DNA of 64,000 nt. It comes from Candidatus Cloacimonadales bacterium. GTDB taxonomy: Bacteria > Cloacimonadota > Cloacimonadia > Cloacimonadales > JAIOQZ01. Made by a program: the position numbers and the translations under genes. How positions within the stretch are numbered: position 1 is the first letter of the stretch; the number at the start of each line of letters is the position of its first letter. Shown here in pieces: positions 8,782 through 14,492 of this stretch. The DNA lies in contig OY771587.1 in NCBI GenBank assembly GCA_963674825.1, positions 3,808,001 to 3,872,000 of the forward strand, written 5' to 3'. Under the pieces are notes generated by a model, which was not told the origin of the DNA, made no database searches, and saw only the letters and a program-made list of their open reading frames with translations.

Positions 8782-10242
8782 CTACAGGTTCTTCAGCAAG
8801 CCGGTACGATCGTTGAATTGCTCGATCATCTCATCCCATTCATCCACGCGAGCATACTGCGACTGCCAGTAATCGTCGTCAAACCACTGCGCGTTGATTT
8901 CCTCGACCGTTTTTCCCTGCTGCTCCACCCATGTGAAGTACTTAAGGTTATGCATCCGCTTGCGATCATAGTGACCAAGCTCCTGCATCCAGTCGATAGA
9001 CTGCCCGATCAGGCTACGTTCGAAATCGACATTCGCGTTGGTTTCGGTGTACTCGCCATGTTTCTGGTGCTCCTGTTTGAGGCGCGAGCCATACATTTCC
9101 ATGCTGTCCGTCGCGACGGTGAACATAGCGTCGTTCTCGTTCATCTCATAGTACTTCGCCATCTTGATCGCACCAAGAATGTTGGCGATCGATGAGATAC
9201 CGAAGACGTTCAGCATGTTGATCAACATCGGATCGATCCCCTTCTGCTTGAGCAGCGCATGGCCGTCCGGTTCGTTGAAGAGACGCATCAGGCGGATGGT
9301 ATCGTCGTCATCGATATCCACTACCATGTCGGTGTTTTTCAAGTTGTGGATCCACGGTACATGCTTATCGCCAATACCCTCGATGCGATGTCCGCCATAG
9401 CCGTTGTACAGCAATGTCGGGCACTGCATGGCCTCACCGGCACCCACCTTGATGGTCGGAAATACGGTCTTGAGATAATCCGCGCTGCCAAGCGTTCCAG
9501 CGGAACCCTGCGTGAGGAAGATTCCCGAGAATCTCGCCTTCGGGCCGCAATTCTGATGGAAAACCTCTTCCATCGCGCGTCCTGTCACATGGTAATGCCA
9601 CATGGAGTTACCGATTTCCTCAAACTGGTTCAGCACCACGATCTCGTCGCCGCGCTCAGCTTTGAGCTGCTTGGTCTTGTCGTAAATCTCCTTCACGTTG
9701 CTCTCGCAACCCGGAGTTTTGATAACTTCGGAGCCCACTTTATGCAGCCATTCGAAGCGTTCTTCCGACATCTCCTCCGGCAACACCGCGATAGAATGAC
9801 AGCCCAGAAGATAGGAATCGTACGCTCCACCGCGGCAATAGTTACCCGTTGAAGGCCAAAGCGCTTTCTGCGTGGTGGGATCGAAACGGCCGGTCACCAG
9901 TTTTTCCACCAGTGGACCAAACGTCGCGCCAACCTTGTGCGCACCCGTCGGGAAGAACTTACCCAGCAGGATGAAAATACGAGCTTTCACACCGGTCAAT
10001 TCGCTCGGAAGCTCCAGATAGTTCACGTTACCGAAGCCACCGCCGAATTTAATCGGCTCATTCTTCCAGGTGATGCGGAAAAGATTGGTGGGATCGAGGT
10101 CCCAGAGTCCGAGATTTTGGAGCTTGCCTTTGATCTTCTGCGGGATCAGGCCCGGATCGATCATCTGTTTGTAGGTTGGAATGATGATGCCTCTCTGGCG
10201 GCACCTCTCCACTGTATTTTTTAGAACTTGTTCGTTATTCAT
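8782..10242 (-). CDS. PLP-dependent fold-type II enzyme (cysteine synthase/tryptophan synthase beta superfamily)
   Basis: GAHKVGA Schiff-base Lys, STGNY, NQF, GSAGT and HRIEGIG motifs. Confidence 0.85.
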   Translation of the reverse strand: MNNEQVLKNTVERCRQRGIIIPTYKQMIDPGLIPQKIKGKLQNLGLWDLDPTNLFRITWKNEPIKFGGGFGNVNYLELPSELTGVKARIFILLGKFFPTGAHKVGATFGPLVEKLVTGRFDPTTQKALWPSTGNYCRGGAYDSYLLGCHSIAVLPEEMSEERFEWLHKVGSEVIKTPGCESNVKEIYDKTKQLKAERGDEIVVLNQFEEIGNSMWHYHVTGRAMEEVFHQNCGPKARFSGIFLTQGSAGTLGSADYLKTVFPTIKVGAGEAMQCPTLLYNGYGGHRIEGIGDKHVPWIHNLKNTDMVVDIDDDDTIRLMRLFNEPDGHALLKQKGIDPMLINMLNVFGISSIANILGAIKMAKYYEMNENDAMFTVATDSMEMYGSRLKQEHQKHGEYTETNANVDFERSLIGQSIDWMQELGHYDRKRMHNLKYFTWVEQQGKTVEEINAQWFDDDYWQSQYARVDEWDEMIEQFNDRTGLLKNL

Positions 10243-10301
10243 CGCGTTCTCCAGTTTCGTTTTTTGAGTAACAGGCAATATTCCGAAACCGTTCAACTTT
10301 G

Positions 10302-11795
10302 TCAATCTTCTTCGATTTCTTCAGCTTCCGTTTCTTCCAGCATCTTGTTATCGAGCTGCTTCGTTGTCTTGAGACCAAGTTTTTTCAGCCGCTCGGTTCT
10401 ACCTACGAGATTACCCTTGCCGGTCGAAAGCTTCTTCATCGCCTGTTGATATGCTTCGTCCGTCCGCTTGATATGCTTTTCTATATTCTGCAATTCATCC
10501 ACGAACAGTACGAACTTGTCGTAAAGGTCACCGCCTTGACGCGCGATCTCCATAGCGTTCTTGGTCTGGTTCTCCTGCCGCCACGTGTGTGCAACCGTAA
10601 GAAGCGTTGCCAGTAGCGTGCTCGGACTGACGATCACGATCTTTTTCTTCAGCCCTTCATCGAAAAGACTGCTGTCCGGCTGAAAGATATACGGCGAAAC
10701 ACCTTCGATCGGTATAAACATCAGCACGAACGCTGGCGTGTTGAGTCCCTTGAGCTGCTCGTAATGTTTATCATGAAGCTCGTTGATGTGCTTCCTCACC
10801 GAAAGCTGTAAGTCCTTCTGATGTTGATCGCGTTTGTCCGGATCATCCTCGGCTGTAAGCCGTTCGTACGCTACCAAACTAACCTTGGAATCGATAATCA
10901 GGTGCTTTTCTTCTGGAAGCTTCACGATGTAGTCTGGACGTTGCTGCGAACCTTCTTCGCTGTGCAGATCCATGGCTTTACCTTGCGCTACGTACTCGAT
11001 TCCCTCGCGAAGGCCGGAGCTTTCCAGGATACGCTTCAGGATCACCTCTCCCCAATTGCCCATCACCTTGACATCGCCCTTGAGCGCTTTTGTCAGATTA
11101 TGCGCCTCTTCGGACATCTTGTTGTTGAGCTCGCGCAGACTCTTGATCTGCTGAACCAGCGTCGCGTTGCGGTCGATGTGATCCTTATTGGTCTCCTCGA
11201 TGCGACTCTCGAACTTAGTGATGTTCTCGCGCAGCGGCTTGAGAATCTCTTCCAGTTTGTTTCGGTTCTGCTCGGTGAACTTGGTGCTCTTCTCCTCGAA
11301 GATTCGGTTCGCAAGATTCTCGAAAGTCTCCTTGAACTTCTCCTGCATCTGCCGAAGCTCTTCTTTCTGCGTCTCAAGCTTCTCCAACAGCGCTTTCTGC
11401 TCCGCTTCCAGCGTGTTGTAAGCGATCTGCTGACGCTGCAAGCTTCCTTTCTCTTCATCCAGCGCTTTCTCGAGAGACGAGCTTCTGACGCTGACACGCT
11501 CGATTTCGTTGAGCAGCATTTCGCGCTCCTTCTCTAGCGCTGCAAGCTTCTGAGCACGTTCGGAAACCTGCTCTCGAAGCACTTCTATCTGTCCCTGGAA
11601 CTGAATCTGTTCGGTTTTCAGCAGACTATTTTCGGCTTCCAGCTTGCTCTTCTGATCTTGCAGAATCGCATGCCTCTGGCGCATCTCATCGCTACCTCCT
11701 GTCTTCTTGAGGATTACAATAAACAGCGCTGCGATCCCACCAATGATTATAACATAAAACAATGGTCCCAACAGCCAGCCGAAACCAAACATCAA
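10302..11795 (-). CDS. rmuC: DNA recombination protein RmuC
   Basis: N-terminal TM and coiled coil; GNWGE, RPD, IIDSKVSL, VLMFIPIE and SPSTLL motifs. Confidence 0.93.
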   Translation of the reverse strand: MMFGFGWLLGPLFYVIIIGGIAALFIVILKKTGGSDEMRQRHAILQDQKSKLEAENSLLKTEQIQFQGQIEVLREQVSERAQKLAALEKEREMLLNEIERVSVRSSSLEKALDEEKGSLQRQQIAYNTLEAEQKALLEKLETQKEELRQMQEKFKETFENLANRIFEEKSTKFTEQNRNKLEEILKPLRENITKFESRIEETNKDHIDRNATLVQQIKSLRELNNKMSEEAHNLTKALKGDVKVMGNWGEVILKRILESSGLREGIEYVAQGKAMDLHSEEGSQQRPDYIVKLPEEKHLIIDSKVSLVAYERLTAEDDPDKRDQHQKDLQLSVRKHINELHDKHYEQLKGLNTPAFVLMFIPIEGVSPYIFQPDSSLFDEGLKKKIVIVSPSTLLATLLTVAHTWRQENQTKNAMEIARQGGDLYDKFVLFVDELQNIEKHIKRTDEAYQQAMKKLSTGKGNLVGRTERLKKLGLKTTKQLDNKMLEETEAEEIEED

Positions 11796-12781
11796 ATCCG
11801 TCCCCCCATCACCAGCGCCATCAGGGCTTTCTGCGCGTGCAGACGGTTCTCAGCTTCCTGGAAAACTACCGAGTGCGGTCCGTCGATCACGGAGTCAGTC
11901 ACTTCACGGCCACGGTCGGCAGGCAGCGGATGCATATAAATGGAGTGCTTCTTCGTCAGCGACATCGCGCGGTCATCGCACACCCAACTCGGATATTTCT
12001 CGATCAGCGCCAGTCCTTCTTTCTGATCCTCAGTGTGGATAAGCGGACCCCACGACTTCGGAATCACGATGTCCGCGTCCCTGAAGGCGTCGTCGAACTC
12101 ATGCGATATCTCGAATTTCACGCCGGCTTCCTCGGCATTCTTCTTCGCCTGTGCCTCGATCTCGGGCATAAGCTTGAATTCCGGCGGATAGGCAAGCGTC
12201 ACATCGATGCCAAAGCGCGGCATCATGAGGATGAGGCTCTGCGGAACGGAAAGCGGACGGATATAGTTTGGCGCGCTTGTCCAGGCCACGCCGAGCTTGA
12301 GTCCACGGGTATTGGTGCCGAAGCGTTCTCGAATGGTCATGTAGTCGGCCAGGATCTGGCATGGATGGTAGATGTCACACTGCATGTTCAGCACCGGAAC
12401 GCTGGCTTCCTTGGCCATCTCGGTGATATACTGGTTGCCGACCTTGTAGTCGCAGTGGCGGATGGCGATGCCTTCGCCATAGGATGAGAGCACCTTCGCG
12501 GTGTCGCGGATGCTTTCGCCGTGGGAGATTTGCGTCTTCTCAGGTGAGAGGAAAATCGAGTGGCCGCCCAACTGGGTCATGCCGGTCTCAAATGAGTTTC
12601 GGGTGCGGGTTGACGAGAAGAAAAACAGCATGTAGAGCGTTTTATACATAAGAAGCGGATGGGGCTTGCCCAGCGCGTGATCCTTCTTGAGATCCGCGGC
12701 CACTTCCAGCACGGTATTCAGTTCATCGACCGTCCAGTCCTGGGTCGTAATGAAGTCTCTTCCTTTCAGATTGGTAATCAT
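11792..12781 (-). CDS. Carbamoyltransferase (OTC/ATC superfamily, YgeW-like knotted type)
   Basis: STRT, HPCQ, HPLP and QEAENR motifs; the W..AP.Y..PLSVPQ loop resembles YgeW rather than the SMG loop of ArgF. Confidence 0.8.
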   Translation of the reverse strand: MITNLKGRDFITTQDWTVDELNTVLEVAADLKKDHALGKPHPLLMYKTLYMLFFFSSTRTRNSFETGMTQLGGHSIFLSPEKTQISHGESIRDTAKVLSSYGEGIAIRHCDYKVGNQYITEMAKEASVPVLNMQCDIYHPCQILADYMTIRERFGTNTRGLKLGVAWTSAPNYIRPLSVPQSLILMMPRFGIDVTLAYPPEFKLMPEIEAQAKKNAEEAGVKFEISHEFDDAFRDADIVIPKSWGPLIHTEDQKEGLALIEKYPSWVCDDRAMSLTKKHSIYMHPLPADRGREVTDSVIDGPHSVVFQEAENRLHAQKALMALVMGGRI

Positions 12782-12912
12782 AGGTACCTCCAATTGATTT
12801 CAATTTCAGCATAAACTTGCAGATATCCCCGCTGCGGTCAAGAAAATACTTGCAACGAACACCAATTATAGCGATACTGGAAATTAGCGATTCTCAACAC
12901 AAGGAGTATTGG

Positions 12913-13578
12913 ATGTACGCGGTTCTAACAGGCGATATCGTTGGATCGTCAAAAATGAGCGATGAGCTGCGCGAACAGACGTTCTCGCGCATTCGACAGC
13001 AACTGGAATTCATCCAGCAGGGAAAGACCGCCTTCCCACTCAGCATCTACCGCGGCGATAGCTGGCAGATCCTGCTCGATGACCCTAAAGACGCGCTGCG
13101 TCTTACCCTCCTGATCCGTACTGCGCTGCTGATGGGCAATTACGATGGCAAAGATCGCGCCGATACGCGCGTCTCGATCGGCATCGGGAGCGTCGATAAG
13201 ATCGACCCGGAAGATATCAGCCTCAGCTACGGTGAAGCCTTTACCCTATCGGGACATGGCCTCGAAGCGTTGAAAAAGAAACAGCGCATGGCCTTTGCTG
13301 CACCCTCGCTTGACCAGGGAGATTGCATCGCCGGCGCTGTAATACCACTGCTTGATGCCTTGATCGATAAAATTACCGCCAAGCAGGCTCGCGCGATGAA
13401 TGGGGAGCTACAGGGGAAATCACTTGAAGTAAATGCAGAGCATATTACATCATCGGGAAATCCGATCACAAAGCAAGGAGTTTGGCAGCACTTGCAGCGA
13501 ATCCATAGCAATACAATCATGGATGTTATCAGTAGTTTGTCCGACTATATTAATGGAATTAATACAAGCATACCGTAA
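12913..13578 (+). CDS. SatD-family protein (nucleotidyl-cyclase-like domain + C-terminal HTH)
   Basis: AGGAG RBS; YAVLTGDIVGS, YRGDSWQ, RVSIGIG and GEAF..SG motifs; C-terminal ITKQGVWQHL helix. Confidence 0.8.
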   Translation: MYAVLTGDIVGSSKMSDELREQTFSRIRQQLEFIQQGKTAFPLSIYRGDSWQILLDDPKDALRLTLLIRTALLMGNYDGKDRADTRVSIGIGSVDKIDPEDISLSYGEAFTLSGHGLEALKKKQRMAFAAPSLDQGDCIAGAVIPLLDALIDKITAKQARAMNGELQGKSLEVNAEHITSSGNPITKQGVWQHLQRIHSNTIMDVISSLSDYINGINTSIP

Positions 13579-13709
13579 ATCTCATGGGGTTGATTTCATC
13601 GATTTCAATCTTCCAGCATTGACGAAGTGTTTGCCGGAATGGGGCGCAATAACATAAAAACAACCATCGGAATTACAGAGCATTCCATAAGTGATCCTTA
13701 ATAATTATA

Positions 13710-13754
13710 ATGATGTACATACCCATATACATCGTATATGGGTATGTACATCAT
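13710..13754. repeat. Perfect 21-bp inverted repeat with 3-nt centre
   Basis: ATGATGTACATACCCATATAC-atc-GTATATGGGTATGTACATCAT. Confidence 0.97.
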
Positions 13755-13769
13755 AGAGGTAACAGCTAT

Positions 13770-14492
13770 ATGATCCAGTATTTCATCATGCTTATCTGCG
13801 CGCACATGCTGGCGGATTTTCCGCTCCAGACCAACTGGATCGCGCGGCAGAAGAAACGGGTTATCGTATCGATCACACACGCCGTTATCCACATCGCGAC
13901 CACGTTGGCTGTTATTTCGTTGACCGGTTGGAAGATCCCATCGCTGACGATAATCGCGATTGCAGTAGGCATCGGTATCCTGCATAGCATTATCGACCTC
14001 ATCAAGGTTTACTGTTTCGAGGATCACCTCAACTCCTTCCTGATCGACCAGATCGCCCATATCGGCGTGTTGTTACCGGTTGCCTTCCTGATGCAACGAC
14101 AATCTGCGATTTCCTACCACCCGGTTGTCGCTCACATCGTCATTTATATCACCGGTTTTTTTGTTATCTGGAATACGGCGAGCCATTTCATCGACCGATT
14201 CGTTGCTAAGTACTTACCATCTCAGGATAAACAACCGAAGCACACCATTTCCAGCCATAACCAGGCAAGCGACTGGATCGGCAAGTTCGAGCGCATCCTC
14301 GCTTTCGGCTTCATCCTGATGGGTTATCCGGAAGGCATTGGATTCATCATTGCAGGTAAATCGATCCTGCGTTTTCAGGATGCAAAAAAAGAAAAGATGT
14401 CCGAATATATTTTGATCGGTACATTGTTAAGCTTAACAATCGCTATCGGTGTCACGTATCTATGTAGATACACAACAACGCTGTTCAAGTAG
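13770..14492 (+). CDS. DUF3307-family integral membrane protein (SatE-like)
   Basis: HMLADFPLQ, H..IH, HSIID, DQIAH, WIGKFER, GKSILRF and EYILIGTLLS motifs; multiple TM helices; GAGG RBS. Confidence 0.85.
   Translation: MIQYFIMLICAHMLADFPLQTNWIARQKKRVIVSITHAVIHIATTLAVISLTGWKIPSLTIIAIAVGIGILHSIIDLIKVYCFEDHLNSFLIDQIAHIGVLLPVAFLMQRQSAISYHPVVAHIVIYITGFFVIWNTASHFIDRFVAKYLPSQDKQPKHTISSHNQASDWIGKFERILAFGFILMGYPEGIGFIIAGKSILRFQDAKKEKMSEYILIGTLLSLTIAIGVTYLCRYTTTLFK

Follow-up and report, generated by a model that had tools for sequence, protein, structure and literature searches.

The DNA analyzed here, a window of 64,000 nucleotides (nt) from a Candidatus Cloacimonadales bacterium (contig OY771587.1, positions 3,808,001 to 3,872,000), contains a two-gene unit, satD-satE, which encodes a protein with a predicted cyclase-like fold and a C-terminal DNA-binding domain, followed by a membrane protein with a DUF3307 domain. 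An earlier note made from the sequence alone had drawn attention to this pair, and both open reading frames (ORFs) and all of the motifs that it quoted are present where it had placed them. It missed a pair of phased palindromes (O1 and O2; 13575-13623), which are candidate operators of SatD. The features of the locus are as follows, with positions given in the window; L and G numbers used below are our designations for loci and genomes.

12913..13578, plus strand: satD, 221 amino acids (aa), cyclase-fold domain and helix-turn-helix (HTH); likely repressor or antitoxin
12913..13371, plus strand: palm domain of SatD (residues 1-153), predicted to resemble class III nucleotidyl cyclases; D8 (12934), S12, D49 (13057), Q52, and R86
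13378..13500, plus strand: HTH of SatD, residues 156-196, with recognition-helix residues K187, Q188, G189, and Q192
13575..13594, no strand: operator-like palindrome O1, 20 bp, overlapping the satD stop codon
13604..13623, no strand: operator-like palindrome O2, 20 bp, exactly 29 bp after O1
13770..14492, plus strand: satE, 240 aa, with a DUF3307 domain and eight predicted membrane helices; likely the toxic partner
13770..14117, plus strand: N-terminal half of SatE (Pfam DUF3307 proper), with H12, D16, H41, H72, D76, D93, and H97; likely metal site
14121..14480, plus strand: C-terminal half of SatE, without a Pfam family; near-invariant residues predicted to be cytoplasmic

The start of satE is most likely at 13770, which has a ribosome-binding site (RBS) in front of it and is where relatives start, rather than at 13710.

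The palindromes O1 and O2 reach a half-site agreement of 21/24 in a motif-free tandem test and form the sole such pair in the 3.89-Mb genome, as searched with a pattern derived from O1 and O2 themselves. They are variant sites that fall under the threshold of the family position weight matrix (PWM). The family operator consensus, seen in tandem 20-bp palindromes between satD and satE, is WACAAS-N8-STTGTW; when the window was excluded, 41 of the 53 distances from one PWM site to the next were 29 bp, and a PWM trained only on regions downstream of satD identified 55 sites just upstream of this gene versus approximately 0.9 expected. The motif-free test was applied to 93 loci, a set from which duplicates (L081 and L085) and non-SatD or fragment rows (L096-L098) had been dropped. 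A period of 29 was obtained in 44 downstream and 31 upstream regions and a period of 28 in 6 and 4, respectively, with any other period (range, 22 to 37) in at most two loci each. Phased pairs are present in 77 of these loci (43 downstream only, 28 upstream only, and 6 both), and in all cases the operators precede satE or the operon and never lie 3' of satE. The same phasing was seen in a further, independent set of 67 loci from metagenomes, in which a period of 28-29 bp had 47 matches upstream and 11 downstream. No further site indicative of a wider SatD regulon was detected in the same genome, nor in five others bar one GC-rich, chance-like match. Two other identities considered for the palindromes were rejected: a promoter inside the downstream operators (match to the -10 hexamer, 1.9/6; upstream pairs, 3.2/6, i.e., partial) and RNA hairpins or CRISPR-like repeats (the outer arms are conserved, the centers are variable, and the bases follow the HTH).

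The correspondence between operator bases and the HTH was characterized in 76 loci, which provide 50 unique helix/operator combinations. The top co-varying columns were residue 187 for base 2, residue 188 for base 3, residues 186 and 189 for base 5, and residue 192 for base 6, all of them in the recognition helix (z scores of 9.4, 15.7, 5.5, and 11.7 for the four bases). Gln188 occurs with C in 34 of 35 cases and Pro, Ala, or Ser188 with T in 14 of 15; likewise, Lys or Arg192 is found with C (24/25) and Gln, Asp, or Glu192 with G (15/19). Independent pairs on a FastTree phylogeny of the cyclase domain without the HTH scored 3.2, 3.0, 2.0, 3.8, 2.4, and 2.8 in the predicted direction and 0, 0, 0, 1.0, 0, and 0 in the opposite one, the value of 1.0 belonging to residue 189. 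Among the genomes of the genus, DNA similarity (BLASTN) breaks over 13409-13744, which comprises the HTH and the intergenic DNA, and G000, G001, and G003 each possess a helix of their own and a matching operator variant; helix and operator have changed together within the genus. Because operator pairs are present and co-vary with the recognition helix, SatD is likely a sequence-specific repressor that binds phased palindromes, and its DNA-binding domain has cognate inverted repeats at the sequence level. The HTH that the earlier note had read at the C terminus is real (helices 156-166, 171-180, and 187-196 in the model; HTH Pfam matches in relatives), whereas its treatment there as incidental does not fit the operator pairs and the co-variation.

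The AlphaFold model of SatD has a predicted local distance difference test (pLDDT) score of 95.7. A 115-row SatD profile searched against the PDB matched 3mr7 and Ma1120 (E values of 1e-5 to 1e-4), with D8 and D49 falling on the metal-binding aspartate pair of cyclases, and it also matched HTH proteins at residues 160-210. A Foldseek comparison with cyclases and PycC, which the earlier note had proposed as a check, gave 10 matches at an E value of ≤0.001, all cyclases, including 2w01 (2.2e-4) and PycC 7r65 (6e-4). The VIA ranking placed bPAC (Z = 13.0; root mean square deviation [rmsd], 2.7; 133 aligned), GTP cyclohydrolase III (12.7), and Rv1900c (12.4) above GGDEF (11.8) and PycC 7r65 (10.6), and OptS (9mnr) appeared under the class III cyclases at rank 35 (Z = 9.9; rmsd, 2.5; 102 aligned). 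D8, D49, Q52, and R86 are invariant in 115/115 SatD homologs, and D8 and D49 are kept in 67/67 SatD proteins of a second (metagenome) sample. These results bear out the cyclase fold with two metal-binding aspartates that had been proposed by eye, and SatD likely binds a metal-nucleotide. Its reaction cannot be read from the fold because comparable scores are reached by GTP cyclohydrolase III and by GGDEF domains. Positions 111 and 115, which we take to be the equivalents of the transition-state Asn-x3-Arg motif of class III cyclases by our own mapping rather than by superposition, do not keep this pair: the window has T111 and H115, Arg115 is present in 42/115 homologs, and Asn is not among the common residues at 111. 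In 10 of 12 divergent rows, an Arg lies one place earlier than 115. The window SatD itself had no match to Pfam PF16264 (SatD) at an E value of ≤1, and the family label given in the earlier note holds only via relatives that are homologous over the full length and pass the cutoff of 29 bits (P0038 [38% identity], 38.7 bits; P0090, 56.4 bits). The protein belongs to a divergent clade that escapes Pfam, and a PF16264 search of genomes also loses several true relatives. No fused longer forms of SatD were found, which is weak evidence.

PF11750 (DUF3307) matches residues 5-116 of SatE with 66 bits (cutoff, 23). The SatE model (pLDDT, 90.7) consists of nine helices, eight of membrane-spanning length, and no strands, with the basic loops 17-30, 146-164, and 197-211 sharing one side. 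Foldseek returned no match to this fold at an E value of ≤0.001, the best VIA Z score was 8.6 (generic helical bundles only), and the ESM Atlas yielded only DUF3307 or unnamed clusters for SatE and its C-terminal half. A relationship of the N-terminal half to YdjM-type hydrolases was weak (hhalign probability, 20%) and was not retained. In a set of 103 SatE-like ORFs, the C-terminal half is highly conserved where aligned, i.e., G171, R175, and K197 in 95/95, E174 in 94/95, R201 in 93/94, Y213 in 91/92, and G217 and S221 in 92/92, with E212 near-invariant. The N-terminal half with the His/Asp residues is absent in five satD-paired loci (L027, L079, L126, L128, and L129), degenerate in six others (L003, L018, L061, L084, L094, and L095), and uncertain in L004, and it also occurs alone in 113-aa proteins without satD. 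Because the N-terminal half is missing or degenerate in paired loci and occurs alone without satD and the C-terminal half is near-invariant, the SatD-coupled unit of SatE is the C-terminal half and not the His motifs. The cluster of His/Asp motifs emphasized in the earlier note exists and is likely a metal site, but it lies in this dispensable half rather than in the invariant core. Erwinia phages Cronus and IT22 and Bacillus phage PK1 likewise encode only the N-terminal DUF3307 half on its own, lacking the C-terminal half that is coupled to SatD.

The recurrent pairing of SatD with DUF3307 proved to be stronger than had been claimed. A satE gene lies directly 3' of satD in 76 of 80 GTDB loci, and three of the other four end within 310 bp of a contig end, which leaves L067 as the one locus truly without satE after satD. 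Conversely, a search starting from satE in metagenomes found satD upstream in 74/74 contigs with at least 300 bp upstream (6 of the 80 lie at contig edges). Among 61 relatives, the 18 matches comprised 15 intact satD genes, all of them paired, one fragment, and two unrelated sequences; two further satE genes sit at contig edges. One full-length orphan satE (G219; satD not found) has the sole change of R201 among the 94 aligned rows. As in toxin-antitoxin systems, an intact satE thus goes with satD in a two-gene unit, and the only orphan found has an altered motif. Pfam-based co-occurrence across 201 genomes was too lossy for counting orphans. The impression that the pair sits "as if inserted" fails within the genus, where all four genomes carry it at the same site, and holds at greater depth, where 15/61 relatives have an intact satD. 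Two genomes show decay: G036 keeps the operators with satD reduced to the HTH part and satE frameshifted (L096 and L113), and G002 (L084) has lost the operator pair and encodes a SatE without the first His motif. In L067 (841-2172), a satD with altered motifs and without satE is followed by a Pycsar effector-like gene for a cyclic nucleotide-binding and TIR protein, which is broken by a stop codon near 1507-1509; this is a single case.

The association with defense loci anticipated in the earlier note was not borne out by the neighborhoods. We compared the first 141 of 234 de-duplicated neighbors with PADLOC and the other 93 with Pfam: 9/141 had PADLOC matches, mostly to generic domains (without a background control), and the 93 were mainly housekeeping genes, with ffh adjoining in one locus (L054). 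PADLOC contained no family matching the window SatD or SatE at an E value of ≤5, and no recurrent third gene was found among 760 flanking ORFs. The exceptions are one cassette embedded in a cluster of restriction-modification genes, one next to a PIN gene, and three carried by conjugative elements. Defense islands are not the usual setting of satD-satE. The pair is the sole cargo of the 3,770-bp ColE1-type E. coli plasmid pEC34A, and likewise of similar plasmids in Klebsiella; these small-plasmid pairs (E values of 1e-30 and 1e-34; 33% GC) keep both aspartates and have no phased palindromes that exceed the threshold. It also occurs among toxin-antitoxin genes on the 10-kb pPFL and in haloarchaeal plasmids. 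We did not find the pEC34A cassette in any of 5,426 complete E. coli genomes, and a single divergent query gave no SatD match among 50,697 phage records; three IMG/VR contigs contain one. The pEC34A record (L223; NC_019077.1, 1792-3481) encodes only Rop, MobA, and satD-satE, and its SatE is 332 aa long with a long cytoplasmic insertion. In L130 (2323-3516), satD-satE lies directly 3' of a PIWI/short Argonaute-like gene (identified by eye), and in L049 (4133-10728) the cassette, with a frameshifted satE, is flanked by a DNA methylase plus a PD-(D/E)XK gene on one side and by a ResIII helicase gene on the other.

The streptococcal sat operon contains the same two families in the same order (SatD, PF16264; SatE, PF11750), whereas the window SatD represents the divergent clade that Pfam misses. 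Transposon sequencing (Tn-seq) tables that include this operon have been published. In S. pyogenes, satD (178/249 genomes) is listed as the single essential accessory gene, with scores of 2/2/2 versus 0/0/0 for its operon partner (PMC11323703), and a second dataset also reports satD as essential and satE as not (PMC4440532). In S. agalactiae, satD has log fold changes of -12.1/-9.7/-9.8, a stronger defect than that of ffh, and SAK_1075 is nonessential (PMC4881062); SAK_1075 is the ortholog of S. pyogenes satE (PMC5452409). The S. mutans values are 0.41/0.21/0.21 for satD versus 1.46/1.31/1.66 for satE (PMC5806208). Over the four streptococci, satD is essential with satE dispensable in two, depleted in one, and nonessential in one. 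By analogy with these orthologs, SatE is likely harmful to the cell without SatD. Other papers mention SatD or SatE only in passing (PMC10326533, PMC13492114, PMC10210942, and PMC12005413), and we found no mechanistic study, operator, or toxicity report for SatD/DUF3307 in the literature outside subscription papers and the supplements of bioRxiv defense screens, which may list the pair.

Taken together, these observations slightly favor a reading in which SatD likely binds the paired palindromes and likely holds back a toxic SatE; the pair would then be an autoregulated, toxin-antitoxin-like guard. Phased palindrome pairs lie before satE or the satD-satE operon, and their bases follow four recognition-helix residues, as seen in the sequences. 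Two SatD dimers, joined via their cyclase domains, would occupy a pair and reduce satE transcription, by promoter occlusion where the pair is upstream and by a roadblock where it lies between the genes, as in the window; upon loss of SatD, SatE would halt growth. In a weaker further step, the invariant aspartates would bind Mg-NTP (nucleoside triphosphate), and SatD would make a nucleotide product that sits in the Glu/Arg/Lys/Arg/Glu/Tyr cluster of the SatE C-terminal half and holds SatE inactive. That a SatD-made nucleotide has this effect is weakly inferred. Loss of SatD or of its product would then release SatE and damage the membrane, and the outcome may be plasmid or locus addiction, possibly abortive phage defense.

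Several observations weigh against this reading. For bases 4 and 7, the columns with the strongest co-variation lie outside the helix, no single residue-base test reached a P value of <0.05 on the tree, and the held-out predictions were right/wrong in 25/11, 27/4, 24/16, and 20/8 cases, which are raw counts without a permutation null and include off-register picks. The operator pair is not detectable in 16/93 loci and in 4/5 plasmid loci, pEC34A included, and the 74/74 set of satE loci was drawn using patterns from intact satE. SatD also lacks the Asn of the class III transition-state pair, with the Arg kept in 42/115 homologs. S. mutans satD is depleted but not essential, and S. equi satD is nonessential, with 36 insertions in 648 bp (PMC5452409). 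The S. equi library consists of whole-plasmid ISS1 insertions (PMC5452409), and those in satD could be polar on satE. The streptococcal SatE was recognized as DUF3307 by name, size (238 aa), position, and membrane annotation and not by alignment. Finally, the essentiality of satD is accounted for just as well by simple derepression of a membrane protein.

This last point leads to the strongest competing explanation, which we consider less probable but deserving of serious weight, namely, that SatD is an ordinary one-component regulator whose cyclase fold senses a nucleotide (NTP, pyrophosphate, or an alarmone) and frees the operators to induce a useful membrane enzyme or transporter, the lethality of satD loss being a side effect of SatE overproduction. 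Such a regulator would suit the position of the operators, always before satE or the operon and never after, and a regulon confined to the cassette. In 43/93 loci, satD is not autoregulated because the operators lie only between the genes, and the nonconserved Asn/Arg pair, the housekeeping neighborhoods, and the stable position in the genus point in the same direction. It is less easily reconciled with the absence of a recurrent metabolic neighbor in 760 flanking ORFs, the patchy spread (15/61 relatives), the carriage of the pair as sole cargo of a small ColE1-type plasmid, the retention of both aspartates even in loci without detectable operators, and a S. agalactiae satD defect exceeding that of ffh. 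This sensor-repressor shares its first steps with the guard model, and the sole difference is whether the aspartates are needed once the operators are removed.

The earlier note had instead likened the pair to Pycsar/CBASS-type defense. On such a model, a phage- or stress-activated SatD would make a product that switches SatE on and the HTH would only tune expression. The class III fold with its similarity to PycC (7r65; Foldseek E value, 6e-4; Z = 10.6), the synthase-plus-membrane-protein layout, the few loci near restriction-modification or other defense genes, and the one satD without satE that precedes a broken Pycsar-like TIR gene would agree with it. An activating synthase would be expected to be dispensable, yet in the Tn-seq tables satD is essential and satE is not in two streptococci, i.e., the opposite sign; together with the absence of a PADLOC match, the 9/141 neighbors with mostly generic matches, and the housekeeping surroundings, this makes the proposal improbable. 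We regard as very improbable the suggestion, prompted by the operon name sat in S. mutans, that SatD and SatE have a housekeeping role in aiding secretion or acid tolerance: the linkage with ffh seen in S. mutans, S. agalactiae, and L054 supports it, but ffh adjoins in only one of the loci to which the 93 Pfam-scanned neighbors belong, satD is accessory in S. pyogenes (178/249 genomes), and satE insertions are cost-free in vitro in the Tn-seq tables.

Among known systems close to the guard reading is Panoptes, in which OptE is toxic by itself and active OptS relieves this toxicity (PMC12657218). Both are two-gene operons encoding a small palm-fold protein with two aspartates (D6/D57 in OptS and D8/D49 in SatD), and a membrane partner that is toxic unless the synthase is present would give the genetic sign that satD/satE show in the Tn-seq tables of two of the four streptococci. 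SatD differs in that its structural scores are nearer those of the class III cyclases than that of mCpol and in having an HTH and candidate operators, and SatE is all-helical with eight membrane helices in contrast to the S-2TM-beta (2TM-beta-barrel) effector. With class III cyclases (Cya2, Ma1120, Rv1900c, and bPAC) and PycC, SatD shares the fold and the two metal-binding aspartates, but it lacks the transition-state Asn, has a variable Arg, and possesses an invariant Gln52 and a fused HTH. AbiE (type IV) and MntA-HepT (type VII) are two-gene units in which a DNA-binding antitoxin represses at inverted repeats and a catalytic domain is present. Like them, SatD-SatE is a two-gene unit that occurs on small plasmids, and its candidate antitoxin is accessory yet essential; the folds are unrelated, the SatE toxin would be a polytopic membrane protein, and in 43/93 loci the operators between the genes would control the partner only. 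The pair would work like a toxin-antitoxin or Panoptes-type guard, yet the comparisons above do not place it in Panoptes, Pycsar, or CBASS. A bolder version, which we consider doubtful, would make it a third inhibitory-signal guard beside Panoptes, in which a SatD dimer of dimers on 29-bp-phased operators constantly makes a nucleotide that shuts a new-fold SatE and also represses transcription, with phage sponges, nucleotide depletion, host DNA damage, or plasmid loss removing this signal and so setting off disruption of the membrane.

SatD and DUF3307 are catalogued families for which we found no mechanism in the literature searched. The present analysis makes the pair testable: it provides a defined candidate operator, a recognition code of four residues that varies in nature, and candidates for the catalytic residues and for a ligand pocket, the latter in a membrane domain without a fold match, and a 3.8-kb plasmid supplies a copy native to E. 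coli. The guard reading would offer an explanation for satD being the sole essential accessory gene of S. pyogenes and essential in S. agalactiae. If the nucleotide step is true, the pair would represent a new inhibitory-signaling defense or addiction family and SatD, to our knowledge, the first cyclase-fold transcription factor; if it is false, SatD would still define a new family of repressors whose operator variants are orthogonal. A third guard of this kind, occurring in many bacterial phyla, on haloarchaeal plasmids, and in streptococcal pathogens, would rank with the most widespread systems of its type.

Two further features of the locus are the following.

12850..12878, plus strand: possible sigma-70-type promoter of satD (-35 at 12850-12855, 17-bp spacer, -10 at 12873-12878; read by eye)
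13710..13754, no strand: perfect 21-bp inverted repeat with a 3-nt loop, directly 5' of the satE RBS; RNA fold of -32 kcal/mol

The putative promoter has 8/12 consensus matches, which is weak and under the promoter-scan threshold, and it is kept in three relatives of the genus; no operator pair is present at this position (12850-12878) in the window. The upstream neighbor is a carbamoyltransferase gene on the opposite strand, and the downstream neighbor is xdhC. The YgeW-like identity given to the former in the earlier note gives way to the NCBIfam ornithine carbamoyltransferase model, which scores higher (280 bits [cutoff, 306] versus 212 [cutoff, 453] for YgeW). Contigs from public runs match the stretch with no differences; X1 and X2 come from one sample, possibly the source, and X3 spans 13546-13772. 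The closest named relative is a Cloacimonadales metagenome-assembled genome (72%). The carbamoyltransferase gene, rmuC, and a gene for a 507-aa pyridoxal phosphate (PLP) enzyme form an operon-like run (8782-12793) that is conserved in the genus; the carbamoyltransferase and the PLP enzyme are both under all NCBIfam cutoffs, and the run may represent an unassigned pathway. The inverted repeat at 13710-13754 has no second copy at up to four mismatches, except for two loose matches at chance level, and is specific to this genome. A consensus -10 hexamer is present at 13706-13711, and G003 has only a short hairpin at the place of the repeat. The repeat may have arisen by recent inverted duplication and may affect the satE mRNA.

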